From the sequence record SRR20825019_2886: a DNA stretch of 33,307 nt; one strand, written 5' to 3'. Under the pieces are notes generated by a model. That model ran no database searches, was not told the DNA's origin, and saw only the letters and a list, made by a program, of their open reading frames with translations. Below, one piece after another: positions 830 to 22,945 of this stretch. Position 1 is the first letter of the stretch; each line of letters begins with the position of its first letter. A program made the translations under genes and the position numbers.

Positions 830-1558
830 TTATTTGGCGCGAAACAGGCCGTATTTAACGATACAGTATATTGCTCGAAAACCATCTTTCCAACCGATTT
901 TCTTGCCCTCTTCATACGTTCTTCCATAATAAGAGATCCCTACTTCGTAGATTCGTATGTTTTTTATTCTTGAAATTTTAGCGGTAATTTCTGGCTCAAA
1001 ACCGAATCGCTTTTCATTCATACGAATTCCTTGAATTGTTTTTGTATTGAATAGCTTATAACACGTTTCCATGTCCGTTAAATTCAAATTACTAAACATG
1101 TTTGAAAGACGCGTAAGAAACTTATTTCCAATAGTATGCCAAAAGAATAGCACACGGTGTGGATTTCCTCCCATGAATCTAGATCCGTAAACGACATCTG
1201 CAAATCCATCAACCACCGGTTTTAAAAGAGCGTTAAACTCTTCTGGATCGTACTCTAAATCGGCATCTTGAATGATCAAGAAATCTCCTGTTGCTCTGGC
1301 TATTCCAGTGTGCAGAGCTGCTCCTTTTCCTGCATTTTTTTCATGTTTGAAAAAGCTGATTTTCATTTCTGGATTTTCCGAACTGTACTTGTTAATTGCT
1401 CCCGATGTATTATCACTAGAACAATCATCGACAATAATTACTTCCTTTTCTATGTCATTAATTAGTTTGACATCACGAACCTTATTTAATATTAAGTGAA
1501 TCGTAGCTTCTTCGTTGTAAGCAGGAATAATAATTGATAATTTTTTACAATGACTCAT
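830..1558 (-). CDS. Glycosyltransferase family 2, DPM1/ArnC-like polyprenol-phosphate sugar transferase
   Basis: [60 protein letters not shown] and C-terminal [12 protein letters not shown] motifs. Confidence 0.92.
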
Positions 1559-1567
1559 AGGAGCTAA

Positions 1568-3475
1568 TTATTTTAATTTAATCTGTTGTATTCGTTTTCC
1601 ATTGGTGTCCAGTATAAATGCCTCTGGAAGCAGTTTATTATCAGCCCAGAAACTTTCAACGTTTGGTTTCCCAGTTTCTTTTATGATAAACTTACCTTCC
1701 ATTTTGCCTCCATTCCAGCTACCGATGTATGTTCTTTTATTCTTATCGATAAATGTTCCTGGGCCGCTTAACGTATCATTCTTCCAGATTCCGTCAACGG
1801 ACCTCCCATCCCGATAGTTATACTTTCCCTTTCCATTTCTGATGCCATTTTTATACTCACCAGAATATCCAAAGTTAGGATTATATTCAAAAAGCCAAAC
1901 ACCAGTTGGCGAAGGTAATACATTTCCGTCTTTATCCTTTCGTTCGACTACACCAAATGACTTCACCATTTTAAATTGCTGATCATCACTTCTTACTACT
2001 GGAAACAAGAATTTCCCAGTTTGGCTAAATCCAAGAGATTCAAATACAACATGTGTTACTTTATTTTTATCCAAACCTTTCAAAAATTCTTCTCGGTTTG
2101 GCGTATATGGGAAATTGCACGTGGAAGGTCCCCCAGCAACATAGAAAATACCTGGTTTTCGTGCTGCTATAACTGCGCCATCTAGATTTTCACCAGTCCA
2201 TTCGGCAAGTCTGATATAGTTTTTCCAATTGGCAGGATAATCAGCGTCTTTCTTAGCCATAAGTTTTTTAACTGCGTTGACTTGAGGAAATGCGAGCAAC
2301 AGAAAGCTTGCCGCGATGTATGGTGATGTTCTCATAGTTTCTCGCTTGGGAAATAGTTTAGTGAGAATAAAGTAAATTCCGAGTACTGAGAATAGAATAA
2401 TCAAAGGTACAATGGGAAGCATGAATCGAATTCCATACCAGACTTGCGGCCAAAGCATGAAAACGACGAAGTTACTTCCGAAAATGAGTAAAAAGAGCCA
2501 ACGATACCTTTTGAGACTCATCAAACCTATTAGTCCCAGAATAATTATAATTATTCCAAGTGCCCAGTGTTTGACTGGCGATGGAACCCATTCTCCTGTA
2601 GTTGAGTTCCTATATTCTACGGCAATATTGGGAAATATGCTATTCGGAATTTCTTTTGATATGTACCGCCAAGCATTTATTTTAACACGCTCACCCCAAT
2701 CGGATACTTTCATCGGTTCAGAAGCTGGGTCGTAAGTGTCTACTTTAACCATGCTCTTTAAATAAGAACTACCCCCGAGACTATTGCTCCTAATTTGCCA
2801 TGGAAGTAAAGCTAAGATAGTGATTACTAGAATTGCCAAACTACTGAGATATCTTTTCGAGAAGAGCAGGTACAAAACTGCGGCTCCTAACATTGTCACA
2901 CCAATTGAGCGAATGTAGATGGATAGAATTAGTGCTAGAAGGAAGAGAATGAAGAATACAGACTTTATTGAATAATAATTGTCAGCCCACCTCAAGAGTA
3001 GAAGAATAGATAACAGTTGAAAAAAGGCGAATGGAAGTTCAGACATCATTACTGAAGAGTATTCCAAGAAGTGTGAGTTCAGCATTATCAGTAGTCCAAG
3101 GAAGATACTAACGACTTGATATCCCGTTAATCGATACGTTATTCTATAAAATACGAATACAATTGCAAGAAGAAACAAACCGTTTAGAATTTTGAAAGCG
3201 GAAATACTTTCAATGCCTATCCTCATGAATAGACTCAGAATAAAGGGATATCCGGGAGGAAAATGATTCGCTGGGGTAGGAAATGGTTCGTTGTTGCTTA
3301 CGTATCCTTCTCCTGAACTAAGTCCGTCTGCAAGGATGTAATAATTACAATTATCGCCTCCTAGAAAGAGTTTTACGTCGAAAATGGAGGGGTAGATAAA
3401 AAGAAATGCGAGTAAAAAAATAAAAAAAGCAAACAGGCTCTTTTTTGAAGGGATGAAAGTGAATTTTGAGATCAT
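1568..3475 (-). CDS. GT-C fold (ArnT/PMT-like) polytopic membrane glycosyltransferase with C-terminal MORN repeats
   Basis: GD-x-x-YY after TM1, HFPPGYP, MSELPF, many hydrophobic helices, RFMLP; C-terminal YxGxWxNG-type repeats. Confidence 0.75.
   Translation of the reverse strand: MISKFTFIPSKKSLFAFFIFLLAFLFIYPSIFDVKLFLGGDNCNYYILADGLSSGEGYVSNNEPFPTPANHFPPGYPFILSLFMRIGIESISAFKILNGLFLLAIVFVFYRITYRLTGYQVVSIFLGLLIMLNSHFLEYSSVMMSELPFAFFQLLSILLLLRWADNYYSIKSVFFILFLLALILSIYIRSIGVTMLGAAVLYLLFSKRYLSSLAILVITILALLPWQIRSNSLGGSSYLKSMVKVDTYDPASEPMKVSDWGERVKINAWRYISKEIPNSIFPNIAVEYRNSTTGEWVPSPVKHWALGIIIIILGLIGLMSLKRYRWLFLLIFGSNFVVFMLWPQVWYGIRFMLPIVPLIILFSVLGIYFILTKLFPKRETMRTSPYIAASFLLLAFPQVNAVKKLMAKKDADYPANWKNYIRLAEWTGENLDGAVIAARKPGIFYVAGGPSTCNFPYTPNREEFLKGLDKNKVTHVVFESLGFSQTGKFLFPVVRSDDQQFKMVKSFGVVERKDKDGNVLPSPTGVWLFEYNPNFGYSGEYKNGIRNGKGKYNYRDGRSVDGIWKNDTLSGPGTFIDKNKRTYIGSWNGGKMEGKFIIKETGKPNVESFWADNKLLPEAFILDTNGKRIQQIKLK
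1634..1870 (-). repeat. 3-4 MORN repeats (protein level)
   Basis: YSGEYKNGIRNGKGKYNYRDGRS / VDGIWKNDTLSGPGTFIDKNKRT / YIGSWNGGKMEGKFIIKETGKPN / VESFWADNK; 23-aa period. Confidence 0.8.
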
Positions 3476-3605
3476 GGGCTGTGTATCTATCGAAATAGAT
3501 ACTAGACCTCCTAAAAACGCTGCATAAGCACAAAAAATAAACTGATTCTAGGTGAATCTGATCATCATTAATCGTAAAGAAAGAATAGATACGTGAGTTC
3601 AGATA

Positions 3606-4598
3606 TTAATCATTCAAATCCCATGAGTACGTCATATAACTCACTTTTGGACTGTCTAATTGCTCGGTACGGTACTTGTTAATGAAATCGATTACTGTTC
3701 CCGATTTTTTGAAATCTTCACCGTACCAATCAAAAATGCTCGAAATTTTAATGTTTTTCGCATCGCTGAAGTCATTTTTAGAAGTATCATTCAAGAATTT
3801 CTTCGTTTGCGTCGTCAACTGGCCATAAAGTTTAGATGGAGTATAAGCACGATTTAGAAGAATTGGACAAGATTCACTGGCACAATTGAGGGCAAAATGA
3901 ACGCGTGGTTCACTAAACTGCTTGCGAATAATACCATTCTCAATAGTGTTCAAATCGTAAGTCTTACCACCAAGCTGAATAAATTTCTTTTCCCAAGGTT
4001 TCGCTGTGATTTTTGTAATGGAAGAAACGGGATAATTGTCTACGATTAACTTTATGGTAAATAAATTGTAAGCATTAATCCAATAAGTTAACTTTTGGGT
4101 AGAACTCCATCCTGAACCTGGATAGTTGTCTTGAAACTCTTGTATGACAGAGTCTAGAGTTGCAGCATCCTTTTTAAACGAGTTGTAATTTACTTTACCA
4201 GAAGAAGAAACATTTGATTTAAGCATCTTGTCCCAACGCTCGTATTCATGAAAATCATATTTATCCTCTGGTTCTTCCATAATCGGAGGGGGAGGTGGGA
4301 TTCTTCCCTCGTCAAAAGGCATAAGACTCGATTTCACATCTTCGACGACTGGAATGTCCTCATCTCCTTTAGGAAGTTTACCTCTAGTCGTTTTTTTAGA
4401 GCTCTCAGTAGCACTCTCATTCGAAGAGATCACATTTTCCTGTACTTCAGTAACGGAAGAAGTTACTTCGGAAGTCTGATTTTCGCTTACAGGATTAACT
4501 GTCAAGTTTTCGGTAGCTTCCGACTTAGCTTCGGATTGACAAGATAATAGGGTCGTTCCGAATCCAAGTATCGTGAGAAAAAGAATTGTTTTTTTCAT
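3606..4598 (-). CDS. DUF547-domain lipoprotein
   Basis: Lipobox LLSC; S/E/T-rich linker with PPPPP; DUF547 hallmarks YWINAYN, LNTIEN, EPRVHFALNCASESCP, ISSIFDWYGEDF, YSWDLN. Confidence 0.85.
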   Translation of the reverse strand: MKKTILFLTILGFGTTLLSCQSEAKSEATENLTVNPVSENQTSEVTSSVTEVQENVISSNESATESSKKTTRGKLPKGDEDIPVVEDVKSSLMPFDEGRIPPPPPIMEEPEDKYDFHEYERWDKMLKSNVSSSGKVNYNSFKKDAATLDSVIQEFQDNYPGSGWSSTQKLTYWINAYNLFTIKLIVDNYPVSSITKITAKPWEKKFIQLGGKTYDLNTIENGIIRKQFSEPRVHFALNCASESCPILLNRAYTPSKLYGQLTTQTKKFLNDTSKNDFSDAKNIKISSIFDWYGEDFKKSGTVIDFINKYRTEQLDSPKVSYMTYSWDLND

Positions 4599-6258: not shown

Positions 6259-6395
6259 AATGAAAACGATTTATGTAAAACATATTTTTGGTTCTTAAAG
6301 ATAATAAAATCGGTGGTTTTCAAGCATTCGTTGCATTTTTATGGAATAAGAAAAGAGATTTGTTTATCTTTCGAATAAATTATTACTCTTATACT

Positions 6396-7439
6396 TTGCA
6401 TAAATTTCTTTTTTTAACCTTTCTGATTTTTGGTGGATACTGGGTTGCTACAGCCTTTTATAGTGATCGTGGACAGGTCGATATGATCAGAAAAATGGAC
6501 ATGTCGGGACTTCCATTGTCGGAAGTGTTGAACCAATTGGGAGATAAACCTCTTGTGCATGAAATTTCAGTATTGGATCCTGCGAAAGCTCAAATGGGAT
6601 ACGAATTGATTTATCTAGGGCAAACCAATTATAAAGGGAAAAGCTCTAAACGAATTTCAAATCACTTCGTTTGTACCGATTGCCATACAACGAAACGCGA
6701 ATCAGCCGATATTTCAACAGATAATTCTGCCGCTCGGTTGATGTACGCAGAAACCAATGGGATGCCTTTTTTGCCTGGGTCGACGCTCTGGGGAATTTAT
6801 AACAGAACCTCATTCTACAATAAAGATTACGAAAAGAAGTACGGAAGTTTAGTTGTAGACGCGAGAGATACGTTGCAAAACGCTGTTCAGCTTTGTGCGA
6901 AGTACTGTTCTTCTGGAAGATATTTGGAAGATTGGGAAGAAGAAGCGATAATGCATTATTTCAAGCAAGAAGAATTAAAAATTTCAGATCTTGACTTATC
7001 CGCGTCGATTATGAAAGAAATTCGCTCAATGGATAAATTGTCGCCAGATGAAAAGACGGCGCTAATCAATAAAATAAAATCACGGTACTCTCAAAAGTAT
7101 GACGCAACATTTCTGGAAACAATGGACCGCAGCAAGCGACCTTATGGAGCTGGAGGAAATAGTGCAAATGGAGAGTTGATTTATGAAAAAGCGTGTATGT
7201 ATTGTCACGAAAACAAACGTGTGACATACCTTCATTTGGATAAAGGAAAACTCAACGCAAAAATGTTCTGGAAAAACATTAGAAAATACAACGAGTTGTC
7301 ATTGTATCAAATTGTTAGACACGGAACGTATTCAAAAACAGGTAGAAAGCAATATATGCCACTGTTTACCGAAGAAAAAATGAGTGATGAACAACTCAAC
7401 GACTTAGTCGCTTACATAAAGAATTTAGCAGGGAAATGA
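6396..7439 (+). CDS. Exported diheme c-type cytochrome, TsdA/SoxA-like
   Basis: CTDCH (6672-6686) and CMYCH (7194-7208); candidate distal ligands in CAKYC and YMP; C-terminal MSDEQLNDLVAYI helix. Likely start is TTG at 6396, giving signal MHKFLFLTFLIFGGYWVATA; the ORF track starts at 6288. Confidence 0.8.
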   Translation: MHKFLFLTFLIFGGYWVATAFYSDRGQVDMIRKMDMSGLPLSEVLNQLGDKPLVHEISVLDPAKAQMGYELIYLGQTNYKGKSSKRISNHFVCTDCHTTKRESADISTDNSAARLMYAETNGMPFLPGSTLWGIYNRTSFYNKDYEKKYGSLVVDARDTLQNAVQLCAKYCSSGRYLEDWEEEAIMHYFKQEELKISDLDLSASIMKEIRSMDKLSPDEKTALINKIKSRYSQKYDATFLETMDRSKRPYGAGGNSANGELIYEKACMYCHENKRVTYLHLDKGKLNAKMFWKNIRKYNELSLYQIVRHGTYSKTGRKQYMPLFTEEKMSDEQLNDLVAYIKNLAGK

Positions 7440-8302
7440 TGAGAAGAATTGTATTAACCGCAGTTTTAGCTTCTACAACAATGTTTTTAAATGCTCAAAC
7501 GGTGCAGGAAACATTTAATGGGACGCGCATCCTTAATGGACATTCAACTGAAACACTTAAAAGTCGTATTCTTCAATATAGAATTGAGCATAGATTCGGT
7601 GATTTGGCAGGATCTAAAGGAGGAATTCAACAGTTTTATGGCTTAGATCAAGCCGCTGATATTCGTTTTGCATTGGAATACGGGATTACAGATAAGTGGA
7701 TGGTAGGACTCGGACGTATTAAAGGGACGAGTGTTCCTTACCGTGCGTTGGTAGATGGATTCACTAAATACCGCGTTTTAAGTCAAACAGAAGACAATAA
7801 AATGCCGTTGAGTTTGACCGTATTGGGAGCTTCAACAGTTTCTTATGCCAAAGCGTTGGAAGATTTATCGCAAGTAGGAAGTTATCCTGATTTCGCGCAT
7901 CGATTGGCATATTCGGCTCAGTTGTTAGTTGCAAGAAAATTTGGAGAGCGTTTGTCGTTGCAACTAGCTCCAACGTACGTTCACAGAAACTATGTAGAAG
8001 CAATTGACGAGAACGGAGTTTTTGCCCTTGGAGGAGCTGCTCATTTTAAATTCACGAAGAAATTTGCTGTGATGGCTGAGTATTATCATGTGCTGAACCA
8101 AACGCAAGGAAGAATAGACATGAAGACAACCAACAGTTTAGGAGGAGGTGTTGAATGGGCTACGAATGGACACATTTTTAGAATTAGCTTAACTAATTCC
8201 GCGGGTTTCACTGAAACTCAATTCATCCCATTAACATTTTCCGATTGGTCAAAAGGTGAGTTTCGTCTTGGATTCAGTATAACGAGAAACTTCAAATTAT
8301 GA
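7436..8302 (+). CDS. DUF5777-like outer-membrane beta-barrel protein
   Basis: Signal peptide ending LNA|Q; TFNGTRILNGHSTE, IEHRFG, FYGLDQA, EYGITD, GHIF, C-terminal RLGFSITRNF; alternating beta-strand pattern; ATGA overlap with upstream gene. Confidence 0.75.
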   Translation: MMRRIVLTAVLASTTMFLNAQTVQETFNGTRILNGHSTETLKSRILQYRIEHRFGDLAGSKGGIQQFYGLDQAADIRFALEYGITDKWMVGLGRIKGTSVPYRALVDGFTKYRVLSQTEDNKMPLSLTVLGASTVSYAKALEDLSQVGSYPDFAHRLAYSAQLLVARKFGERLSLQLAPTYVHRNYVEAIDENGVFALGGAAHFKFTKKFAVMAEYYHVLNQTQGRIDMKTTNSLGGGVEWATNGHIFRISLTNSAGFTETQFIPLTFSDWSKGEFRLGFSITRNFKL

Positions 8303-13187: not shown

Positions 13188-13445
13188 ATGGATATAATTC
13201 GAAAGATTATTGGCTTTCCTTTGGTTCTTCTGGTAAGAATTTATCAATGGATTATTAGCCCAATTTTTCCGCAATCTTGCAGGTACACTCCCACATGTTC
13301 TTCATATATGATTGAAGCAATTCATGTATGGGGACCAATCAAAGGAACGTATTTAGGAATTAAACGGATTGCATCGTGTCATCCTTGGGGTGGACATGGG
13401 CATGATCCAGTTCCAGAAAGAACATCTAAAAAAAGCAATAAATGA
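13188..13445 (+). CDS. yidD: Membrane protein insertion efficiency factor YidD
   Basis: [34 protein letters not shown]. Confidence 0.96.
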
Positions 13446-15748
13446 ATTTACGCACTCTTCAACTAATTTTTGGTCTTCTGCTTGTCGGTTCTGCGCAATC
13501 ACAATCTTATGTGAGTCCAACGCCTACGAGTATTATGAACTTACCGACGGCAGAATCTTCTGAGCTAGGTGAAATTGCATGGTTTTATCCTCAAGAACGT
13601 GCATTGGTGGCAAATCAGTTTGAAAAAATGGAAATTGGAATTAAACTTCCGCCGTCAATAGAGCATAAAATTCGATCTTTTTTTGTCCAAGATAGGCGAG
13701 AGGAACAAATAAATCCATTCAACAGAGCGGATATTGACATAAGCGCAGAGTTTCGATTCAATAATGAAGTCGTAAAACATGTAGATGGCTTTTATTACGA
13801 AGAATTTTACAGGAACCTAACGCTTGGGATGTGGTCGAAAGACACGACATCTTATCCCTTTAGAATTCGTTTTGCACCAGAAAAAGCGGGAACATACGAG
13901 GTCTTTGTTTCTATACAAACGAATGGAGACGTTTCAAATAGAGTAACTGGAGCTCGTTTTTCATTTGAGGTTCTTCCATCAAACGTTGCTGGACCATTGG
14001 AACAAGGAACAAATATGAAGCATTTTAAGTATACGCGTTCAGGAGAAAGTTTCGTAGGAGTTGGACAGGAAGTTATAGGAGCATCTTGGAATGATTGGAC
14101 GGAAATGGATGCCGCCGCACGTCCAGAAAAGTTCCTGCCCATCTATGAATCATTGAGAGAAATGCAATCGGCGAAGGGAAATTTCACCCGATTTGTTGCT
14201 GCGCCTTGGTTTATGCAACTTGAATGGGAAGCACTCGGGAATTATCAACCTAAATTACCTCACGCATGGGAGTTCGACCGAATCGACGAAAAGTGCAATG
14301 AATATGGTATTTACTACATTTTCTGCCCAATGCTTCACAGCCAATTGGAAAAGAGAACAGATGAAGAGGACCGAAGCGGTGGAGCGGGTGTAAGGTGGGA
14401 AGCATATTGCTACAACGATGATGATGTCACGGTGAACAACTTAGCGCATGAGGAAAAAATAGGAATTAATGATCCATTCGAGTTTTTTGGAAATGAACGA
14501 GCGGGCTTCCATCAGGAGAACTATTTCAGGTATTTTATTGCACGTTGGGGATATTCGAATGCGCTTACTGCATGGCAATTGATGAGTGAAGTGGATCAAG
14601 TTACTGGTTATAGAGACGGAATCGATAGTGCAGGAAATGTCGTTGATAATTCTAGCAACAGAGAAATTGTAAACAAATGGGCAGGGCGAATGCTCAATTA
14701 TTTGGAAAATGATTTAGAGGACAAAAAATTAAAAAGCATCGCATACATCGTAGGTAAGAATTACTCGAGTTTTTTATGGGATCCAGAAATCTACAAGTAT
14801 GAAGACATGGATTATTTGGGACTTCATGATTATACTTTTGAGATTGAAGGGGGAGGACGTTTTGTTCGCAATAGAAACCTCGTTACTAGACACGAGACTG
14901 TTACAAATCTTGGTGTTGGAATTGAATTTGGAGAAATAGTTCATCCAGAATTTCAGAATAAAATGTACATCTATGATGAGTTCGGTCAAACGATTGCTAT
15001 TCCAAAAGTATGGCCGGATGACGTGTATGAGGACCCTACGGTTTGGATGAATAATTGTATGGATTTTAACTTCAAACAGGATCTTTGGTTTACGTTTGCC
15101 AGCGGCTGCGCTATAGCCGGTTTGGATTGGTGGAATGCATTTGAAGATCAACGACAAGCTCAGTGGAAACGATACTTTCCTGGGTTGGTGACTTTCTCTT
15201 CGAGTATAGATTTTGAAAAGGTCAACTATGCTACCGTTAAGGAGCGTAAAGGAGTAAATTACATTTCTCAAAGGTGGCCTTTTGACAGAGAAGATATTGA
15301 AAGAAGTAACGCTTCGGATTATAAAGATTGGGATATTTTAGAAGCGTATATTCAAATTGATTCTGCACAAATGCAAGGTTTTGGCTGGGTAAACAATCGC
15401 TCATTCCATTGGGGGAACTTGGTCGATAGTTTGGAGTGTTTGAAAGCAATTGTAAATGGAGAAGAGCCTTTTGCAAGATCTTACATGTATCTACCTTTGG
15501 ATGACGATCTTACTTCAAAGCCGATTAACATTGAGAAAGGAAGCGCGTATTTCAAGATTTACAATGTAAATAGAAGAACGAAGTACAAAGTTGAATTCTA
15601 CGATACTGAAACAGGGAAAGTGATTCAGTCTGTGGAGGTAAAATCTAATATTTTTGGAGTTCTTAAGGTTTATTCACCTGAGATGAATCCTTCGGAACGA
15701 TTCGATGTAGCCTTTAAGTTTTTTGAAACAGAAGGCGGCTGGAAATAA
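13442..15748 (+). CDS. Exported DUF5060-like plus clan GH-A (GH5-like) glycoside hydrolase
   Basis: Signal peptide; [53 protein letters not shown] (acid/base region), HDY, DEFG (nucleophile region). Confidence 0.6.
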
Positions 15749-17079
15749 TCGTCAATCCGCAGAAATTTGATCTTAGTTCCGTTGTGTTTTAGTTCTCGGA
15801 AAAGAATCATAAACAAGATAATGTATTCGGCGGTAACCATTAGTCTAACTGGGATTGATGAACCTGATCCAACATGATAAAAGAAGTAGGAAAAGAAAAT
15901 CAGATAGGACCAGAATAAGGGAAATGCGAAATTTGTAAAAACAGACAGCGCAAGAATTGGCAAGAGGTACCACGGATGCATGTTTCCACTAAAGATTAAG
16001 AAGAGGAAGAATCCGAAGAGAAGTTTTTTGAACAAGAGTCGCCAATCCACGATCACATCTTTGAGAGCGAGGCGCACGATAAGTGCCATTGAAATGATTG
16101 AAATAATAGGTCCAAAAATGCGACTTGGATTGTAATCAAGGAATAATTTTCCAATTCGATTTGTGTTGAAGTAAATAAAGGAGTTAAATTCGAAAACCCT
16201 GAAATAGAGCGCTAAACTTTTAAAGAAATGACCGACGTTGTGACCGTTAATTTGAAATAGACTGATTCCTATCGTGAGCGAAATTGTCACAAAGTAAAAG
16301 AGCGCCGCTTTTTTGAATCCTAAAAATCTCAGGAAAAAAGGAAGTAGCAAAAGCGGAACAAGTTTCATTTGAACTGCCAAAGCGAAAAAAAGTCCAGCAA
16401 CGATTAGTTTATTGGTGAAGATAAAATAGATTGAAATAATCAAAAACGACAGCATGACTCCTTCGAAATGTACATTTCCGGTACATTCAATAATCCAAAG
16501 TGGATTAAGATAAAGGATCCAAATTCTCGCTTTGTCAATGGAAAAGTGTTTGAGGAGTTTCAATAAATAAAAGGCTCCGAGCATTTCGCTGGCAATGATC
16601 AATAATTTCATGATAAACATGCTCTGCCAAACAGACGAACTGAAAACTCCTGAAATAATAAAATAAGATTGATTTAGGGGAGGATAGCAGGAATAATTGT
16701 CTTTCGAAAGATCACTGAGTCCATTGTACAATTCGCGCATGTACGGAGAATCTACATTGACTTGATTCGCAATTTCCCTTGGAACAAAATCAAATGGATT
16801 ATAGCCCATCAATGTTATTTCACCGTCCCAGATAAATCGGTAGTAATCAACGGATAGGTTTGGTTCGAAAATGGTCGAAACGGCCTGTGCAAGCATCGCA
16901 ATTACAAACATTCGTTCGAATGGAATCTCACGTGATTGCTTGATTAGAAACAAATAAGCACCGAATGCAAGTGTGTAGAAGCTTGCAATAACAGTAAATG
17001 CAGTTCTATCTGCTTGCCAATTAAGTGCATAAAGTGAACTCAGAAAAATGATTGCAGCGACAATTCCTTTCCAGTTCAC
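15670..17079 (-). CDS. GT-C fold membrane glycosyltransferase (GT87/DUF2029-like)
   Basis: GTG start; LSVDYYRFIWDG, YNPF, CYPP, NPL..IE..GNVHFE, KLVP, MHPWY; about 12 TM segments. Confidence 0.8.
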   Translation of the reverse strand: MNWKGIVAAIIFLSSLYALNWQADRTAFTVIASFYTLAFGAYLFLIKQSREIPFERMFVIAMLAQAVSTIFEPNLSVDYYRFIWDGEITLMGYNPFDFVPREIANQVNVDSPYMRELYNGLSDLSKDNYSCYPPLNQSYFIISGVFSSSVWQSMFIMKLLIIASEMLGAFYLLKLLKHFSIDKARIWILYLNPLWIIECTGNVHFEGVMLSFLIISIYFIFTNKLIVAGLFFALAVQMKLVPLLLLPFFLRFLGFKKAALFYFVTISLTIGISLFQINGHNVGHFFKSLALYFRVFEFNSFIYFNTNRIGKLFLDYNPSRIFGPIISIISMALIVRLALKDVIVDWRLLFKKLLFGFFLFLIFSGNMHPWYLLPILALSVFTNFAFPLFWSYLIFFSYFFYHVGSGSSIPVRLMVTAEYIILFMILFRELKHNGTKIKFLRIDDYFQPPSVSKNLKATSNRSEGFISGE

Positions 17080-17087
17080 CGTAATTT

Positions 17088-19004
17088 TTATTTGTTGGCA
17101 GCGTTCGACTGTCGAATTTCAATCACAGAATAAAAGAAAACAAGTCCGTAACCAATAGCGAGCATTAAATGGAAAGGAACCATTCCTAAATCACCATAAA
17201 TAGCCCGATTGACCGTCGTGTATGCAAAAAGGAAGAAAAGCACTCCTTCACCGATATTTAGAATCGAAAGGCGTTTTTTATCATACTTATTATTTCCTTT
17301 GAAATCACTCTTCTTGCTAACATTGAACTTTGGCGTTCTAACAAAAGAGCTCTTAATTCCGAGGTAACCTTCTATTACCGCAACAGTGTTGTTTAATGCA
17401 AGTCCCATAGAAACGACCAAGAACTGGAAGAAACGAGCGACAAACTTAACGAACGATTTGAACGTGTTTGGCGTTTTATCTCTGAACGAATGCCAGTAAT
17501 AGAACATCAAGAAAACCGTACTGATTAAGAAAATGGCTCCGTATTGAAGTACATAATTCAAATCAGAGAAGCTGTCCTTAATATGTAAAATTGGAAGACT
17601 CAATATGGAGATCATCAAAATCACGATGAAAACAGATGAGTTGAATAAATGAGAAAGTCCATGAATTCTATCTGAAAAACGAACGTTCTTTGCAGTCAAT
17701 AATCGTTTCCACATTTTGATAAAGCATTCCGCTCCACCTTTCATCCAACGATGTTGTTGAGATTTCAATGCAGACATGGTAATAGGAAGTTCAGCAGGTG
17801 CAATTACATCTTCCAAATACTGGAATTTCCATCCTTTCATTTGAGCACGGTAACTTAAATCAAGATCTTCGGTTAAGGTATCATGTTCCCAACCTCCGGC
17901 ATCTTCAATACACGTTTTACGCCATAATCCGCCAGTTCCATTGAAGTTGATATAGTGACCTGAAGCATTTCTTCCACCTTGTTCAATCGCAAAGTGACCA
18001 TTCAAACCAAATGCTTGAAGTTCTGTAAGCAATGAATAATCTTTATTAATGTGTCCCCAACGTGTTTGAACGACACCAATTTTTTCATTCTCAAAGTAAG
18101 GAACCGTTTTTTGTAACCAATCGCTATCTGGAATAAAATCTGCGTCAAAAATCGCGATAAATTCTCCTTCCACTTGATCCATTGCTGAATCTAATGCACC
18201 AGCTTTGTATCCCGTTCTGTCAACTCTGTGAATGTGCTGAATATTGATCCCTGTAGCAGCGACTTCTGCGACTTTGGCAGCAATCAGATCTTTGGTTTCA
18301 TCCGTAGAATCATCCAACACTTGAATTTGAAATTTATCTCTTGGGTACTCAAATTTTGCAATGGTTTCGATAATCCGATCCGCTACATAAAGTTCGTTGT
18401 ACATCGGAAGTTGAACCGTAACCTTAGGTGCTTTTTCAGGATCGAAGATCGGTTTAACATCTGGCGTGATTTTCTTTTTGCGTCTATTCTTTACGTAAGC
18501 AATCGCCAACGAAAGTTGTAAAATACTGTAGAACAATACAAGTAGAAGACAAGTAAAGTAGATAAACATGATCCCTTTACTCACAAAATGTGACCAATAA
18601 TGTTCTTGTTCACCACGATCTCCCCAGTTCCACATCCAAGAAACTTTTCTACCGATAGCAAAATCTAAATTCGGAATGTGTGTTGTTGTTACTTCGAAAT
18701 TAAACTTCTTTTCATTGAAGTCTTTGTCCATCACCTCAAGAGAATACTTTCCAACAGGTAGTTCATTAAATTCAAACTTTCCATCCGAATTAGTAGTTGC
18801 CTGGTAGGTAACGTTTGTTTCTGAATGTTTTATCTGGACATCAACTTTCTCGATAGAACGTGAAGTCTTTTGATCGGTAATAGTACCGCCAAATGTTTGA
18901 GATTGAGCCCATAGCAAGCTTGGAGCAAAAAATATTAGAGCAAAAAGGAATGTCTTGAACATCATCAAAGGTTGATTGTGCGTTGGTTTTATTGCCTCAG
19001 TCAT
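17088..19004 (-). CDS. Cellulose-synthase-like GT2 (CslA/CslC-like) with N-terminal carboxypeptidase-regulatory-like domain
   Basis: QLPMYNE, QVLDDSTD, GYKAGAL, IFDADF, VQTRW, TEDLDL, QQHRW, FVRTPK; N-terminal GTITDQKT...TTNSDGKFEFNELPVGKYSL; TAATG overlap with upstream gene at 19004. Confidence 0.88.
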   Translation of the reverse strand: MTEAIKPTHNQPLMMFKTFLFALIFFAPSLLWAQSQTFGGTITDQKTSRSIEKVDVQIKHSETNVTYQATTNSDGKFEFNELPVGKYSLEVMDKDFNEKKFNFEVTTTHIPNLDFAIGRKVSWMWNWGDRGEQEHYWSHFVSKGIMFIYFTCLLLVLFYSILQLSLAIAYVKNRRKKKITPDVKPIFDPEKAPKVTVQLPMYNELYVADRIIETIAKFEYPRDKFQIQVLDDSTDETKDLIAAKVAEVAATGINIQHIHRVDRTGYKAGALDSAMDQVEGEFIAIFDADFIPDSDWLQKTVPYFENEKIGVVQTRWGHINKDYSLLTELQAFGLNGHFAIEQGGRNASGHYINFNGTGGLWRKTCIEDAGGWEHDTLTEDLDLSYRAQMKGWKFQYLEDVIAPAELPITMSALKSQQHRWMKGGAECFIKMWKRLLTAKNVRFSDRIHGLSHLFNSSVFIVILMISILSLPILHIKDSFSDLNYVLQYGAIFLISTVFLMFYYWHSFRDKTPNTFKSFVKFVARFFQFLVVSMGLALNNTVAVIEGYLGIKSSFVRTPKFNVSKKSDFKGNNKYDKKRLSILNIGEGVLFFLFAYTTVNRAIYGDLGMVPFHLMLAIGYGLVFFYSVIEIRQSNAANK

Positions 19005-19693
19005 TAAAATCGGTACTTAAAAACAGCAAAGATAATTTTTATTCCCGCAAGTACAGTACCTTTTACGGTTCCACTTACTTTTGAAACGCCAATTCTTTTT
19101 TTGTAATTAACAGGAACCTCGCAAAACTTCATTTTTTGCTTGGAAGCTTTGATTTGCATTTCGATTGTCCAGCCATAAGTTTTATCAGACATTTTTAACT
19201 TTTCTAGCGCTACTGCAGTGATTGCTCTAAATGGGCCTAGGTCTGAAAAACGTGCGCGATAGAAAATTCGAATTAGCTTCGTTGCTAACCAATTCCCAAA
19301 GATTTGCTGAGGTGTTAATGATCCTTTTTCTCGCTTTCCAAGTACGCGCGATCCAATCACCATGTCCATGTTTTCTTCTAAAATTGGACGAATCACGTCA
19401 GGGATTTCTTGTGGATAATCGGAGTAATCACCATCTAAAAAAACGATCAACTCTGTAGAAAGTGTCTTGCTGTGCTCAATTCCTTTTAAACAAGCCCAGC
19501 CGTACCCTTTTCGAGTTTCATCAATTACGATAGCTCCCGCATTTCGAGCTACACTTACAGTATTGTCATTTGAGTTATTATTGACAACTATAACAAAGTC
19601 AACAATGTCTCTTGGAATATCTTCGACTACTTTTCCGATTGATTTCTCCTCGTTATATGCAGGAATAATAACCGTAATAATTGGTTTTTTCAT
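19004..19693 (-). CDS. Glycosyltransferase family 2, DPM1-like
   Basis: [53 protein letters not shown]. Confidence 0.9.
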   Translation of the reverse strand: MKKPIITVIIPAYNEEKSIGKVVEDIPRDIVDFVIVVNNNSNDNTVSVARNAGAIVIDETRKGYGWACLKGIEHSKTLSTELIVFLDGDYSDYPQEIPDVIRPILEENMDMVIGSRVLGKREKGSLTPQQIFGNWLATKLIRIFYRARFSDLGPFRAITAVALEKLKMSDKTYGWTIEMQIKASKQKMKFCEVPVNYKKRIGVSKVSGTVKGTVLAGIKIIFAVFKYRF

Positions 19694-19710
19694 GAACTAA
19701 ATTCAATCCT

Positions 19711-21519
19711 TTAGAGGTTCAAAGTTACTCCATCCTTAGTAATGACCAACGGGTTCGAGTCAAATCTACCTTCTTCTGGGCCATTTTCTAATTTTAGTAC
19801 GCCACGTGGGCAAACTGCAGAACAAACACCGCATCCTACACAACTCGCTCGTACGATGTTTTCACCTTTTTGGGCATAAGCACGAACATCAATTCCTTGC
19901 TCACAATAAGTGGAACAGTTTCCGCATGAAATACATTGCGCACCATTTGTCGTGATTCTAAAACGTGATTTAAAACGTTGAATGATTCCCATGTATCCAG
20001 CCATTGGACATCCAAAACGACACCAAACGCGATTTCCAAGAATAGGATAGAAGCCCACGCCAATTACACCTGCGAAAGCCGCACCGACAAAAAATCCGTA
20101 GACTTTTTTAATACTCTTACTTTTAAGAATGAATACTTCTTCCGCACCAGAGTAATTCGCGTAAAAGGTGAGTCCAGCTACAATTACCAGAGCGAGTGCT
20201 CCAATGGCTAACCAACTATTTTTACGTTTGCGGTATAAGAAAACAAGTCCAACTGCTGAGAGAAGAGAAAGAATTACGACCGCCCAAGAGAAACTTGCGC
20301 TAGTTATGGTTAAAAAGGAAATAACGTATTCTTTTCCTGAAAAATAGGGCCATAATGCACCAATAGACATCAATAGAACGAAGATCATCACAGAATGGAT
20401 CACCCAACGTTCTATTTTCCAAGCAGACATTTTTTTAGAAGAGAGCTGACGGAATCCATCACCTGCTGTTTCAGCAAGTCCGCCACAACCACAAACCCAT
20501 GAGCAATACCATCGCTTCCCAACAATATAAGTGAGAAATGGAGTAACGATTAAAAAGAGAATAATTCCCCAAAAGAAAAAGAACGTACCTGAAACACCTT
20601 CGTTTTTCATGGCGTCCATTTGATAGCTTTCAACAAAACCGTAGTTCAGTGGCCATACATTCTTCAAATCTTTCTGAAAGTAACCTTGATAATCGTTGAA
20701 TGCTTCGAGAATATGTGGAATTGCATACGCAAACACAACTTGGAAAAAGATCACAGAAATCGTCCGAATAAGTTGATAGCGATTATGTCTGTATTTGTAA
20801 ATAAATTTTATTCCTAAAAAGAAGATTAAAAAAGTATAAAGCGTTCCATAAACAAACCATTGTCCAGCTTTTGCTCCAGTGATGAGGTAAGCCAGCGGGT
20901 CAAATAAGCGAATCATTCCCTCAAGCGATTCCTCAAACCAGTACAGTTGAATGTAAAATAAGGTGAGCACGACTCCTGAGATCCAGCCCAAAACGCCTCT
21001 TCCTGTGAGTGAGTTGAAGTAGACATGATTGTTCTTAATTCCTGCGGTGTGCTTAGCGTATGTCGCGTAAGTGTAAAGTAAAATCCCTGCTGCCATTCCC
21101 AACATTGAAAGCCATAGGTAAAGCGTATGATTCGAGTTAATGAATCCAAACCACGCCAACACAATCACAGAGAATCCTAACATTCCGATAAAGAGAGCAA
21201 GCATTTGAAGCTTACTCATCGATTTCCCATAAAAGGATCGAATGGAAAGGTGATGATATTCGTAGGTAAAAATGAATGAACCGATAATCATTGAGCTAAA
21301 TGAGCCCAGAATGAACCACTCAAAAAGCGTCCAGTTGAGAGTGAAAAGTCCAAAAAATGAGAACTCGCTTACTTCCTTTATGAGTTTTGGTTCGTAAATC
21401 GTAAGTCTACTTAGCTCTATTAGTCCAAGGACACCAATAATGAAGAGAAAAACCCCAACTTTTTTAAAAATGGAAAGAGATTGTGCCTCTTTTCCGACAA
21501 GTGAATAATTAGTTTCCAT
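19711..21519 (-). CDS. Polytopic membrane 4Fe-4S protein (NapH/MauN/CcoG-like)
   Basis: GKRWYCSWVCGC, GNRVWCRFGCP, CISCGNCSTYCE, CVGCGVCSAVCP; many TM helices. Confidence 0.85.
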   Translation of the reverse strand: METNYSLVGKEAQSLSIFKKVGVFLFIIGVLGLIELSRLTIYEPKLIKEVSEFSFFGLFTLNWTLFEWFILGSFSSMIIGSFIFTYEYHHLSIRSFYGKSMSKLQMLALFIGMLGFSVIVLAWFGFINSNHTLYLWLSMLGMAAGILLYTYATYAKHTAGIKNNHVYFNSLTGRGVLGWISGVVLTLFYIQLYWFEESLEGMIRLFDPLAYLITGAKAGQWFVYGTLYTFLIFFLGIKFIYKYRHNRYQLIRTISVIFFQVVFAYAIPHILEAFNDYQGYFQKDLKNVWPLNYGFVESYQMDAMKNEGVSGTFFFFWGIILFLIVTPFLTYIVGKRWYCSWVCGCGGLAETAGDGFRQLSSKKMSAWKIERWVIHSVMIFVLLMSIGALWPYFSGKEYVISFLTITSASFSWAVVILSLLSAVGLVFLYRKRKNSWLAIGALALVIVAGLTFYANYSGAEEVFILKSKSIKKVYGFFVGAAFAGVIGVGFYPILGNRVWCRFGCPMAGYMGIIQRFKSRFRITTNGAQCISCGNCSTYCEQGIDVRAYAQKGENIVRASCVGCGVCSAVCPRGVLKLENGPEEGRFDSNPLVITKDGVTLNL

Positions 21520-21525
21520 AAGGTG

Positions 21526-22854
21526 TTATGCTGGGATTAGTTTTTGCCACCATTTAGGCGGATTTAATTTGAGTTGAGTGCCAAATTTTAGGTTGAATTG
21601 GTCGATTACCTCTTGCTCGTATCTTTTGTAAAACTCTGGATCAAAGTTGGCAGATTTTAAGTTCATGAGAACCTCATCAATAGTTGCTTCTTGATTCAAC
21701 CAATTATTGAAAAGCGGATGTCGCAATCGAATTCCAAAATTGTTAATTCCAACAAATTTTCTACTTTCTTTCTCGAAGACAAAATGCAATAGAACCTCAT
21801 CCGTCGCGTGTTGATAAACGAATTCTTCTTGTCCATCTTGCAGCGAATTAAGCACCATTCCGTAGGTCTGGTATTCAATTTCAAAGAATTTTGCAGAGTT
21901 GAACCAATGTCCAGGATTGTATTCTCTTCGCGTGCCTGTGAGCGTATGTGCTACCGTTTCACCCATAAATTTCCCTGTGTACCACACTTGTTCTATTGGG
22001 CGACGATTTTCCAACGGTTCTCTAAATTCGGCACAGTCACCAATGGCATAAACATCCTTTACTGAAGTCTCCAAGAATCGATTCACCAAGATTCCACGAT
22101 TTGTTTCAATAGTGCTTGATTTAACAAAATCAATGTTCGGAGAAACTCCCGCTGTTAAACCAACAAATTGACAATTTAAGCTTACTCCATTTTTAGTGAC
22201 AATTTTGGAAACACGTCCATCAGCGTCTGGGACAATTTCATCGAGTTCATCGCCGTAATGCATCGTTAAACCGTGGTGCTTATCAAAGTGACGCATGATT
22301 AATTCAGCGTCTTGTTTTGGAAGCACGCCACTCCAAAAGTGTGATTCTCGAACCAAGAAATCGACTTTAATATTACGGGTGAGAAGCATCTCTGCCATTT
22401 CAATTCCGATTAATCCACCACCAACAATCACAGCGCTGTCAATTCCTTTGGTGTTTTCTTCCATGCTTTCTAAATCTTGCTTGGAATAAAGTCCTTGAAC
22501 ACCAATAGAATCTTGACCTTTCCAACCAAATTTGTTCGGTTTTGAGCCTGTTGCCAAAATGAGCTTTGAATAGGAAATTGAGCTTCCGTCTTTCGTAAGA
22601 AGCTGCTTTTCATCGGTATCTATTTTCTCTATGTGTGCTTGTCGTAATTCAATGCGATTCTTTTCCCAGAAATATGGTTCGTACGGTTGCGTATGTTCGA
22701 ATTTCATGTGTCCCATGTACACGTACATAAGCGCAGTTCGAGAGAAAAAATAGGTCGATTCTGAAGAAATAATCATAATCCGTTCATCGCTATTCTTTCG
22801 AATATATCGAGCGGCGGTAACTCCAGAGATTCCATTGCCAATGATTACAATCAT
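21526..22854 (-). CDS. NAD(P)/FAD-dependent oxidoreductase (ferredoxin/rubredoxin-reductase-like)
   Basis: IIGNGISG, LILATGS, IVGGGLIGIE, VYAIGDCA; no SFxxC redox cysteine. Confidence 0.88.
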   Translation of the reverse strand: MIVIIGNGISGVTAARYIRKNSDERIMIISSESTYFFSRTALMYVYMGHMKFEHTQPYEPYFWEKNRIELRQAHIEKIDTDEKQLLTKDGSSISYSKLILATGSKPNKFGWKGQDSIGVQGLYSKQDLESMEENTKGIDSAVIVGGGLIGIEMAEMLLTRNIKVDFLVRESHFWSGVLPKQDAELIMRHFDKHHGLTMHYGDELDEIVPDADGRVSKIVTKNGVSLNCQFVGLTAGVSPNIDFVKSSTIETNRGILVNRFLETSVKDVYAIGDCAEFREPLENRRPIEQVWYTGKFMGETVAHTLTGTRREYNPGHWFNSAKFFEIEYQTYGMVLNSLQDGQEEFVYQHATDEVLLHFVFEKESRKFVGINNFGIRLRHPLFNNWLNQEATIDEVLMNLKSANFDPEFYKRYEQEVIDQFNLKFGTQLKLNPPKWWQKLIPA

Positions 22855-22937: not shown

Positions 22938-22945
22938 CAAATGTA
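22938..22945 (-). promoter_or_regulatory. -7 element for the redox/glycosyltransferase operon
   Basis: TACATTTG(C) on the minus strand, ~84 nt upstream of ATG 22854. Confidence 0.55.

Follow-up and report, generated by a model that had tools for sequence, protein, structure and literature searches.

Genes at the locus

The window, by which we mean the whole 33,307-nucleotide stretch of record SRR20825019_2886, carries five co-directional open reading frames on the minus strand at 15670..22854, and their coordinates, with gaps of 6, 17, -1 and 8 nt, bear out the five-gene operon proposed in a preliminary description of this DNA. The genes encode RED (21526..22854), a cytoplasmic FAD/NAD(P)H flavoprotein of 442 aa and of the ferredoxin/rubredoxin-reductase type; PFD (19711..21519), a polytopic, NapH-like membrane polyferredoxin of 602 aa; GT2s (19004..19693), a short DPM1/AglJ-like GT2 of 229 aa; GT2L (17088..19004), a BcsA-like membrane GT2 of 638 aa; and GTC (15670..17079), a GT87/PimE-like protein of 469 aa with a GTG start and a GT-C fold. 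Profile matches and the GT-C model agree with the families claimed earlier, namely an FAD reductase, a membrane polyferredoxin, a DPM1-like GT2, a GT2 with a QQHRW motif and a GT-C enzyme.

A candidate Bacteroidota -7 box, TACATTTG, lies at 22938..22945 on the minus strand, 84 nt upstream of the ATG of RED. The motif is present as first described, but it is not single: the operon itself contains four further minus-strand copies of TANNTTTG (at 19761, 19720, 19027 and 17441). Since the window holds 37 copies, against 35 +/- 6 by chance, and internal copies exist, the upstream box is not a significant feature.

Two neighbouring genes may be associated with the operon. An exported DUF5060 protein, encoded on the plus strand at 13442..15748 and convergent with GTC (79 nt overlap), is a possible associate; it matches DUF5060 with 27.6 bits and solved DUF5060 proteins at E 1e-11, and a convergent DUF5060 neighbour also occurs in 11 of 80 related loci. 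A DUF547 protein (3606..4598, minus strand; PF04784, 98.3 bits), located 11 kb from the operon, is a possible distal member. It is an orthologue of the DUF547 protein next to RED in relatives, sharing 50% identity (E 2e-72) with the one encoded beside TIGR04283 and RED in a related locus (L115), and DUF547 is found in 17 of 70 PFD loci.

A flavoprotein and its predicted membrane partner

RED matches Pyr_redox_2 with 162.7 bits, and among solved structures it is closest to ferredoxin, rubredoxin and putidaredoxin reductases as well as CoA-disulfide reductases, while likeness to quinone reductases of the NDH-2/FSP1 type comes at lower scores. The sole invariant Cys of the family sits in the GDC FAD motif, and for this reason RED has no redox-active disulfide.

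PFD matches 4Fe-4S dicluster models and Fer4_5 (25 bits, cut-off 22), and reaches only 45.3 bits with the NapH/MauN model, for which the cut-off is 213. It contains two 4Fe-4S motifs and five more invariant Cys residues (C339, C343, C345, C500 and C504). As in NapH, MauN, NosR and CcoG, a Fer4_5 domain with CX3CP and a polytopic membrane part are joined to a cytoplasmic 2x[4Fe-4S] domain at the C terminus; unlike these proteins, PFD has about 10-12 helices instead of 4-6, and one of its motifs is CX3CXC. In further contrast to NapH-type proteins, PFD is paired with its own NAD(P)H flavoprotein, and the operon encodes no periplasmic redox enzyme as a partner. The structure model of PFD is of moderate confidence (pLDDT 71), and a structure search with it matched no solved fold.

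RED adjoins PFD in 66 of 70 loci, the other four having RED elsewhere in the genome, and in one relative (L184) an 826-aa fusion of Pyr_redox_3/2, Fer4_5 and 4Fe-4S domains occupies the same operon position. A model of the RED-PFD complex scored 0.86 (best control, 0.01), a mark that 116 of 157 solved complexes attained, as did 2 of 215 mismatched pairs; these counts apply only roughly here because our own alignments were used. At least 82% of the contacts agreed between runs, with a partner pLDDT of at least 87. The predicted interface comprises residues 523-581 and cytoplasmic loops of PFD and, on RED, includes the family-invariant residues R39, A41, Y44, W291, K322, F323, R376, E407 and F408. 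Solved flavoprotein-ferredoxin complexes exist for the reductase class of RED, so that part of the score may mirror this likeness. Docking of RED on the ferredoxin domain of PFD is supported by this model, and the electron link from flavoprotein to Fe-S protein that had been postulated is backed by the protein family, the fusions in relatives and the predicted complex alike. When DSSP topology, cytoplasmic interface loops and invariant columns are combined, the invariant PFD residues Y189, Y193, Y224 and Y228 would face the outer leaflet, the side on which GT-C enzymes encounter their donors.

Three glycosyltransferases

GT2s matches Glycos_transf_2 with 80.8 bits, and its best NCBIfam matches, AglJ (130 bits, cut-off 325), dolichyl-phosphate hexose transferase and PpgS, all remain below cut-off; judged by these likenesses, it is probably a polyprenol-phosphate sugar synthase. 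GT2L matches Glyco_tranf_2_3 (96 bits) and, below cut-off, CelA (121.6 bits) and PgaC (112.8 bits), with BcsA as its best solved relative (73 bits). Like BcsA-type enzymes, it has the D, DxD, TED and QxxRW motifs, visible in the translation as DDS, DADF, TED and QQHRW, followed by membrane helices. Unlike BcsA, it lacks BcsB and has an exported N-terminal CarboxypepD_reg domain (52 bits) behind a signal peptide, which the preliminary description did not contain; a domain profile search found neither PilZ nor another regulatory domain on it.

GTC itself has no Pfam match and matches MptA/MptB only weakly (33.6 and 24.8 bits), and an orthologue matches Pfam GT87 with 55.6 bits. Its GT-C fold is confirmed at the level of the predicted structure (pLDDT 88), with which Foldseek retrieved GPI mannosyltransferase I (E 9e-5), ALG6, ALG3 and PimE; profile matches include GPI-MT1 (E 2e-4) and PimE (E 0.024). 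The invariant residues D78 and D85 precede helix 78-90. GTC resembles the mycobacterial GT-C enzymes that use polyprenol-P-mannose, PimE/GT87 and MptA/MptB, matching PimE by fold and profile, but its identity to PimE is 12-14% and it belongs to a different phylum.

Three-component periplasmic glycosylation systems include GtrA/GtrB/GtrC, CsbB/YfhO and GacI/GacL. As in GtrB-type systems, a DPM1/GtrB-like GT2 is paired here with a GT-C enzyme that would use a polyprenol-phosphate sugar outside the membrane. Unlike GtrB, GT2s has no C-terminal membrane helices, and in contrast to Gtr systems the operon, by its ORFs in the window, has no GtrA-type flippase gene and adds a BcsA-like processive GT2 and the flavoprotein/polyferredoxin pair.

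Recurrence of the two modules in the Bacteroidota

All five genes are present in 50 of 80 related loci, 49 of them with the same order and strand, including loci of Roseivirga, Kordia, Polaribacter and Vicingus, in which the flanking accA and SLT synteny is lost. Among 401 sampled genomes of the phylum, 85 contain both the PFD family and GT-C, 7 only PFD, 13 only GT-C and 296 neither, which corresponds to an odds ratio of 276; this statistic takes no account of phylogeny or of the taxonomy and completeness of the genomes, and paralogues may account for GT-C matches near E 1e-12. When only PFD orthologues are considered, 66 of 70 are accompanied by GT-C. The physical linkage is looser: at least two glycosyltransferase genes lie within 14 kb of PFD in only 24 of 70 loci (46 are without), and in 32 of 70 neither glycosyltransferase nor arsenosugar-set genes are near PFD. 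Where GT-C is distant from PFD, 12 of 20 loci had all three glycosyltransferase genes within the stretch retrieved, in 10 cases adjacent to one another. Synteny and genome-wide co-occurrence both show that the redox and glycosyltransferase genes recur together, so that the objection that they might not co-occur elsewhere fails. A literature search found no published description of such a redox-glycosyltransferase system.

Shared neighbourhoods with arsenosugar genes

In relatives, the redox and glycosyltransferase modules are joined in every pairwise combination with arsenosugar operons, whose gene set comprises ArsS, ArsM, PNP, TIGR04282, TIGR04283, DUF547 and rhodanese (families exceed curated cut-offs). 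The earlier reading stands in so far as the three glycosyltransferases and the redox pair belong together and recur, but it missed this association, which alters the probable subject of the pathway. In L162 (RED-PFD-TIGR04169-ArsS-GT2s) ArsS lies between PFD and GT2s, with intergenic gaps of 10-72 nt in mixed operons of this kind. Other arrangements are ArsS-TIGR04282-PNP-ArsM-RED-?-PFD-GT2s-GT2L (L117), a locus with every module (L123), the ArsS set followed by GT2s and GT2L with RED-PFD on a separate contig (L214), and RED-PFD-DUF547-ArsS-TIGR04282-ArsM in a Crocinitomicaceae MAG (L051). L177 and L179, the PFD loci that diverge most, are tight operons of TIGR04169-ArsS-TIGR04282-RED-PFD, and in four of the eight fetched fusion-type loci (L184-L187) the gene that fuses flavoprotein and PFD is an immediate neighbour of ArsS-set genes. 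GT2s orthologues directly follow ArsS in L162 and L184-L186.

At least one arsenosugar-set gene occurs in 30 of 70 PFD loci and, by hand count, TIGR04282 in 89 of 92 PFD genomes. Because ArsS is found in 149, TIGR04282 in 246 and PFD in 92 of the 401 genomes, the redox/glycosyltransferase set is a narrower add-on to the arsenosugar genes. Although the families of the ArsM and ArsS pathway, with TIGR04282, TIGR04283 and TIGR04169, are interleaved with the five genes in relatives, profile searches of the window found none of them. Arsenosugar cannot be the general cargo, since no ArsS match was obtained in 27 of the 85 genomes that contain both PFD and GT-C; in two of these 27 (G310 and G322) the rhodanese-TIGR04282-DUF547-TIGR04283-RED-PFD-GT operon is complete. 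The GT2s proteins of phylum-sample loci share 52-62% identity with that of the window whether or not arsenosugar genes lie nearby, in keeping with a common, ordinary sugar donor.

These neighbourhoods could also mean that RED-PFD is mainly a reductant of the arsenosugar branch, which reduces the radical-SAM cluster of ArsS or keeps arsenicals trivalent, with the three glycosyltransferases merely finishing or exporting products and the pair in the window a leftover of that role. The gene orders of L162, L177 and L179, the fusions beside ArsS-set genes and an odds ratio of 6 for PFD and ArsS speak for it. We consider it unlikely, given that a PFD match is missing from 85 of 149 ArsS genomes and an ArsS match from 28 of 92 PFD genomes, that the association of PFD with GT-C is far tighter, and that a membrane protein of 10-12 helices would be an unusual electron source for a soluble enzyme of the radical-SAM type.

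The methylthioxylose (MTX) capping cluster of mycobacteria contains an MTA phosphorylase, a GT2 and a GT-C enzyme. Similarly, relatives of the window group the genes for a purine-nucleoside phosphorylase, a GT2, a GT-C enzyme and an enzyme producing a 5'-substituted 5'-deoxyadenosine, and the conversion of methylthioadenosine into a lipid-linked 5-deoxy-5-thio sugar would follow the same logic. MTX is described as a lipoarabinomannan cap (PMC10503756). The arsenic link concerns the relatives and is absent from the window. To our knowledge, the mycobacterial clusters have no redox pair.

A proposed two-module membrane system

Gene order, adjacency and co-inheritance, together with the protein families and the GT-C fold, lead us to propose, with about even confidence, that the five genes form one conserved two-module membrane system of Bacteroidota, in which the redox pair would serve a redox step on a lipid-linked glycosylation intermediate. 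RED would transfer electrons from NAD(P)H to FAD in the cytoplasm and dock on PFD at its cytoplasmic 2x[4Fe-4S] domain. PFD would hand the electrons on, through additional Cys-bound clusters at the surface of the membrane, to a conserved site rich in tyrosine within its helices. At the inner face, GT2s would load a sugar onto polyprenol phosphate; the GT87-like GT-C enzyme would move the polyprenol-P-bound sugar to an acceptor outside the cytoplasmic membrane; and GT2L would make and export a beta-glycan, or glycosylate a lipid, as the likely acceptor. Functional coupling of the two modules seems quite likely and polyprenol-P glycosylation likely. That the redox pair acts on a membrane-bound, lipid-linked pathway intermediate, an idea akin to the reductive step of the preliminary description, is a tentative suggestion; we know of no GT2 or GT-C enzyme that requires electrons. 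DprE1/DprE2 carry out the flavin-dependent epimerisation of decaprenyl-phosphoryl-ribose and offer a working analogy, as a polyprenol-phosphate pentose there undergoes flavin-dependent redox chemistry before GT-C enzymes use it, but the protein families are unrelated and the DprE system has no Fe-S membrane protein.

Alternatively, the modules may be independent and merely co-regulated, for instance in an envelope or phosphate/arsenate-stress island, with the redox pair an NAD(P)H:quinone-type enzyme and the glycosyltransferases making ordinary exopolysaccharide. NapH-type proteins are quinol-linked, which together with the lower-scoring quinone-reductase likeness of RED, the separation of the modules in 46 of 70 loci and neighbours (GH113 and DUF5060) that suit a plain polysaccharide locus would favour this explanation. 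Near-complete co-occurrence despite dispersal, the existence of all three pairwise module adjacencies at short gaps, and ArsS between PFD and GT2s in mixed orders make it improbable. That the target of the redox pair is the lipid carrier rather than the sugar, with polyprenol saturated to a dolichol-like form, or that the pair gates the BcsA-like synthase by the redox state of the cell, the second option of the preliminary description, would agree with the invariant membrane-embedded residues of PFD, suggestive of a lipid-phase substrate, and with the dolichol-phosphate donors of the closest structural relatives of GTC, but is very unlikely, as RED is not a flavoprotein of the geranylgeranyl-reductase type and GT2L has no regulatory domain such as PilZ.

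For the proposed two-module system in species with arsenosugar operons, the sugar could, as a conjecture with less than even prospects, be the ArsS/PNP-derived 5-deoxy-5-dimethylarsinoyl-ribose or its product. Because the set is co-inherited across Bacteroidota, often within arsenosugar clusters, the five genes represent a testable candidate for late steps of arsenosugar chemistry.

Organization of the five-gene set

The five genes on the minus strand are a real, conserved system without prior characterization, each part of which belongs to a known kind; the combination of a dedicated redox module with a Gtr-like/BcsA-like glycosyltransferase set was absent from the literature searched. Head to tail, they encode the flavoprotein RED (21526-22854, an ORF of 442 aa), the polytopic membrane polyferredoxin PFD (19711-21519, 602 aa), the short DPM1/AglJ-like GT2 glycosyltransferase GT2s (19004-19693, 229 aa), the BcsA-like GT2 glycosyltransferase GT2L (17088-19004, 638 aa) and the GT-C glycosyltransferase GTC (15670-17079, 469 aa). 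The ORF boundaries and the intergenic gaps of 6, 17, -1 and 8 nt agree exactly with the preliminary description, which was also right to group the five genes, as the set is conserved and its modules are co-inherited. GC content is even over the region (0.37-0.41), and an ORF scan of the window found no further ORF of at least 80 aa between the five genes on the operon strand.

The -7 box reported upstream of RED is present, but its reading as a special, single box does not hold: the motif is no more frequent than chance would give, and further copies lie inside the operon, which rules it out as a sign of a single promoter. Rfam gave 0 matches over the window.

Several neighbors deserve mention. 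An exported DUF5060 protein (13442-15748, plus strand) is convergent with GTC, with an overlap of 79 nt, and 11 of 80 related loci have this neighbor too. It could serve the locus as a glycanase, a part perhaps played by GH113 in other lineages. The plus strand at 6288-8302 encodes a cytochrome c protein and, after it, a membrane beta-barrel protein of the DUF5777 family, neither of which showed a tie to the five-gene set. Finally, the minus strand at 830-4598 possibly carries a second lipid-linked glycosylation set, comprising a DUF547 protein (3606-4598) that is 50% identical to the DUF547 protein flanking RED in relatives, a polytopic protein of 635 aa (1568-3475) that bears MORN repeats at its C-terminus and faintly matches the putative glycosyltransferases LA_3751/LA_3752, and a DPM1/ArnC-like GT2 (830-1558). 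Relatives have a small MORN protein between PFD and GT2s, to which the window's 635-aa MORN protein is unrelated (E 0.38).

Conservation and co-inheritance

Scanning with PFD gave 80 loci, mostly from Crocinitomicaceae/Fluviicola MAGs at 50-73% identity, which makes this family the probable home of the window. Cultured carriers include Lishizhenia tianjinensis, Brumimicrobium spp. and Roseivirga spongicola. RED and PFD are both present in 74 of them and all five genes in 50, of which 49 keep the same order and strand. In 59 loci the sequence extends 6 kb or more downstream of PFD, and 8 of these lack every glycosyltransferase gene. The gene order is kept in Roseivirga, Kordia, Polaribacter and Vicingus, though the flanking accA and SLT are non-syntenic. 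Three contigs with this Bacteroidota-type operon (L001, L063 and L067) belong to MAGs that bear the names Henriciella, Comamonadaceae and Luminiphilus, probably through binning errors; in the first of these contigs, a stretch matching GTC (L001:14425-15816) contains 3 stop codons and could be a broken copy or an artefact of the assumed frame.

A wider sample of 401 genomes, evenly drawn from the phylum of a related genome, gave PFD matches in 92 genomes, namely 70 orthologs (best E <= 6.1e-52) and 22 weaker matches (best E 1e-27 to 7e-11), and GT-C matches in 98. All 70 ortholog loci were examined for neighbors. RED adjoins PFD in 66, and the other 4 genomes have a RED ortholog elsewhere; at least two of the three glycosyltransferase genes lie within 14 kb of PFD in 24. 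Clustering of the neighboring ORFs places the glycosyltransferase trio next after RED in frequency (23-24 loci), followed by DUF547 (17), GH113 (15) and TIGR04282 (12). A lipoprotein of about 300 aa without a family match (cluster c9) lies between GT2s and GTC in four loci (L133, L135, L148, L149) and directly after PFD in three (L141, L146, L155) where RED is non-adjacent.

The preliminary proposal of a redox and glycosyltransferase operon depended on the two kinds of genes occurring together elsewhere, and they do. Any PFD match and GT-C are found together in 85 genomes, PFD only in 7, GT-C only in 13 and neither in 296 (odds ratio 276); for the PFD orthologs the counts are 66, 4, 32 and 299 (odds ratio 154), and for any PFD match against the radical-SAM arsenosugar protein ArsS they are 64 both, 28 PFD only, 85 ArsS only and 224 neither (odds ratio 6), all three ratios being uncorrected for phylogeny and ungauged for genome completeness, with weak GT-C matches that are perhaps paralogs. 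Where GT-C lies far from PFD, all three glycosyltransferase genes are found within the examined stretch in 12 of 20 loci and are adjacent in 10 of those. From the co-occurrence counts and these distant, intact trios it follows that a genome with one module generally has the other as well, also where the two are chromosomally apart.

The redox pair

RED matches Pyr_redox_2 of Pfam at 162.7 bits (cut-off 26.1) and has the features of a Rossmann flavoprotein binding FAD and NAD(P)H, without a redox-active cysteine pair. Among solved structures it most resembles ferredoxin, rubredoxin and putidaredoxin reductases together with CoA-disulfide reductases. Because the only cysteine invariant among 41 orthologs sits in the GDC motif, RED is of the ferredoxin-reductase type rather than a disulfide reductase; a CoA-disulfide/NADH-oxidase-type enzyme was ruled out, as there is no conserved active-site cysteine.

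PFD combines Fer4_5 with a C-terminal 2x[4Fe-4S] domain, and its model has about 10-12 helices. NapH/MauN proteins have a membrane core of 4 helices with two CX3CP and two 4Fe-4S motifs. PFD has one CX3CP (C500-C504-P505), one CX3CXC (C339, C343, C345) and two 4Fe-4S motifs, and it scores below the cut-offs of both NapH/MauN TIGR02163 (45.3 vs 213.05 bits) and the NapH equivalog (39.8 vs 234 bits). The Pfam domains of the cupric reductase CcoG/FixG, FixG_C and Fer4_18, are both missing from the 9 Pfam families that matched at E <= 0.001. Its fold matched nothing in the PDB at E <= 0.001, its profile found only generic 4Fe-4S domains among PDB sequences, and the ESM Atlas holds only unnamed '4Fe-4S binding protein' clusters; relatives are annotated merely as '4Fe-4S binding protein' or 'polyferredoxin'. 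The family is large, with 7985 of 8000 scored candidates at E <= 1e-20. Across 42 orthologs, the two 4Fe-4S motifs with their eight ferredoxin cysteines, C339, C343, C345, C500 and C504 are invariant, as are tyrosine, glutamine and proline residues in the membrane part.

RED and PFD form a pair, as supported by their adjacency and by their fusion in relatives: the 22 weaker PFD matches include proteins of an 826-aa type in which a Pyr_redox_3/2 flavoprotein is fused to a Fer4_5/4Fe-4S membrane domain. The model of the RED-PFD complex scored 0.86 and the best control 0.01, a mark that 116 of 157 solved complexes attain, as do 2 of 215 mismatched pairs (approximate counts, from our own alignments). 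Runs share at least 82% of contacts with a partner pLDDT of at least 87, and the modeled interface sets PFD residues 523-581, the region of the first 4Fe-4S motif, and cytoplasmic loops against family-invariant RED residues. From this interface and the K/R-rich loops, we infer that the Fe-S domain of PFD is cytoplasmic. In the model, the invariant Y189, Y193, Y224 and Y228 would face the outer leaflet and Q260 would lie mid-membrane, a placement that suggests a lipid-phase or outer-face site.

The glycosyltransferases

GT2s matches Glycos_transf_2 at 80.8 bits, and its GT-A domain and best similarities fit a DPM1/GtrB-like polyprenol-phosphate GT2. Its top NCBIfam matches are AglJ, dolichyl-phosphate hexose transferase and PpgS, every equivalog score being under its cut-off (AglJ 130 vs 325 bits), and no solved structure matched at E <= 1e-8. 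GT2L has the motifs of a processive GT2 in its translation (DDS, DADF, TEDLDLS, QQHRW), with membrane helices after them, and BcsA as its best solved relative (73 bits); it falls under the equivalog cut-offs of CelA (121.6 vs 699 bits) and PgaC (112.8 vs 422 bits) and has no PilZ match in Pfam. It also bears an exported CarboxypepD_reg domain, which the preliminary description lacked.

The window's GTC has no Pfam match, GT87 (PF09594) included. The earlier assignment of this last gene to GT-C is nevertheless right, because an ortholog in L133 matches GT87 at 55.6 bits (cut-off 25), the family profile matches GPI mannosyltransferase I and PimE, and the model is confident (pLDDT 88, pTM 0.88), matching Gpi14 (E 9e-5, TM 0.52-0.58) and further ALG6, ALG3, PimE, PglB and ArnT. 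The acidic residues D78 and D85 vary in none of 24 sequences and, in the model, would belong to the first outer loop. A small GtrA-like flippase gene, which would complete a three-component Gtr system, is absent among operon-strand ORFs of at least 80 aa between the five genes.

The arsenosugar neighborhood in relatives

The window is an ordinary member of the system in its stand-alone arrangement, and the main added lead is a connection to arsenosugar genes in relatives. Recurrent extra neighbors scoring over curated NCBIfam cut-offs are ArsS (TIGR04167), the arsenosugar ArsM (NF038099), TIGR04169, TIGR04282, TIGR04283, the rhodanese family NF045521 and purine-nucleoside phosphorylase (PNP), and among relatives every pairwise adjacency of the redox, glycosyltransferase and arsenosugar modules is found. 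One locus (L162) reads RED, PFD, TIGR04169, ArsS and GT2s; another (L117) reads ArsS, TIGR04282, PNP, ArsM, RED, an unassigned position, PFD, GT2s and GT2L; L123 has every module. In L214, the ArsS set is followed by GT2s and GT2L, with RED-PFD on a separate contig, while L177 and L179, whose PFD is among the most divergent, run TIGR04169, ArsS, TIGR04282, RED and PFD, and a Crocinitomicaceae MAG (L051) has RED, PFD, DUF547, ArsS, TIGR04282 and ArsM. The flavoprotein-membrane fusion lies directly beside ArsS-set genes in 4 of 8 examined fusion loci (L184-L187), where a protein of about 826 aa (Fer4_5/2x4Fe-4S; L184:6455-8935) is directly upstream of TIGR04283, TIGR04282, DUF547, TIGR04169, ArsS and GT2s; the GT2s ortholog after ArsS is 50-58% identical in L184-L186. 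Among the matches listed, at least 10 genomes have no more than about 1 kb between GT-C and TIGR04282.

The link is non-obligatory, since a match to ArsS was lacking in 27 of the 85 genomes that carry both PFD and GT-C, TIGR04282 is more widespread than ArsS (246 vs 149 of 401 genomes), and the 33-kb window contains none of ArsS TIGR04167, ArsM NF038099, TIGR04282, TIGR04283 and TIGR04169, its only trace of this neighborhood being the DUF547 ortholog at 3606-4598. A relative from the same family (G001) has DUF547, ArsS, rhodanese and TIGR04282 on another contig. With so many TIGR04282 carriers lacking ArsS, the name 'arsenosugar biosynthesis glycosyltransferase' may be too narrow; several TIGR04282 matches lie in ORFs that measure 411-476 aa, a length suggestive of TIGR04282-TIGR04283 fusions. 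Two loci (L115:1437-2309 and L116) encode an OlsE-like fatty-acid hydroxylase, of a di-iron membrane enzyme family, inside an operon of rhodanese, TIGR04282, DUF547, TIGR04283, RED, PFD and glycosyltransferase genes, in genomes that both gave no ArsS match; this hydroxylase is a possible electron consumer.

Possible mechanisms

In the textbook scheme, a polyprenol-phosphate sugar is made inside the cell and a GT-C enzyme uses the sugar outside the membrane. GT2s, GTC and GT2L would fit this scheme, with a synthase-made glycan as possible acceptor, and GH113, a mannanase family present in 15 of 70 loci, together with the likeness to PimE/Gpi14, hints at mannose chemistry. Our best guess, a tentative one, is that the redox step acts on a lipid-linked intermediate.

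Among the rivals, RED-PFD might be the reductant for ArsS, or serve arsenic redox; the fusions beside ArsS-set genes speak for this reading and the carriers that gave no ArsS match against it. RED-PFD might also act in carrier saturation, or in redox gating, readings in favor of which stand the invariant membrane residues of PFD, as these suggest a lipid-phase substrate. That the two modules are merely co-regulated is a further rival, against which speaks the joint inheritance of modules that lie apart.

In a further reading, to which we give only a small chance, the redox pair and the three glycosyltransferases would together supply the membrane stage that bacterial arsenosugar metabolism still lacks. 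The 5-deoxy-5-dimethylarsinoyl pentose derived from ArsS/PNP would be loaded onto polyprenol phosphate by GT2s, and NAD(P)H-fed PFD would redox-modify the lipid-linked pentose at the membrane, either reducing the arsenic or epimerizing the sugar. GTC would then attach the arsenic sugar to an exported beta-glycan or lipid; ArsS-free carriers would use the same machinery for a related, non-arsenic sugar. Mycobacterial capping with methylthioxylose (MTX), which PMC10503756 describes as a cap, would be a parallel of the proposed arsenic-sugar transfer.

Novelty and significance

A literature search by titles and abstract starts returned no paper on an NAD(P)H/Fe-S membrane module with a Gtr-like/BcsA-like glycosyltransferase set, and the search brought up no glycosyltransferase system to which a dedicated Fe-S electron input belongs. 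Searches for arsenosugar and glycosyltransferase gene clusters returned nothing relevant, as did those on arsenosugars, Bacteroidetes and arsS among the matches listed; the radical-SAM arsenosugar papers, by titles and abstract starts, all concern ArsS or ArsL chemistry, with no assignment of a later step. Beyond ArsS, the steps of arsenosugar and arsenolipid synthesis are not known to have been assigned.

The five-gene unit occurs in about one fifth of the sampled Bacteroidota-phylum genomes (the PFD family in 92 of 401, GT-C also in 85) and offers concrete knock-out targets. If the link is true, the product would be an arsenic-bearing envelope glycoconjugate, a large family with no annotation beyond '4Fe-4S binding protein' would gain a function, and marine arsenic cycling would be tied to envelope glycan chemistry.
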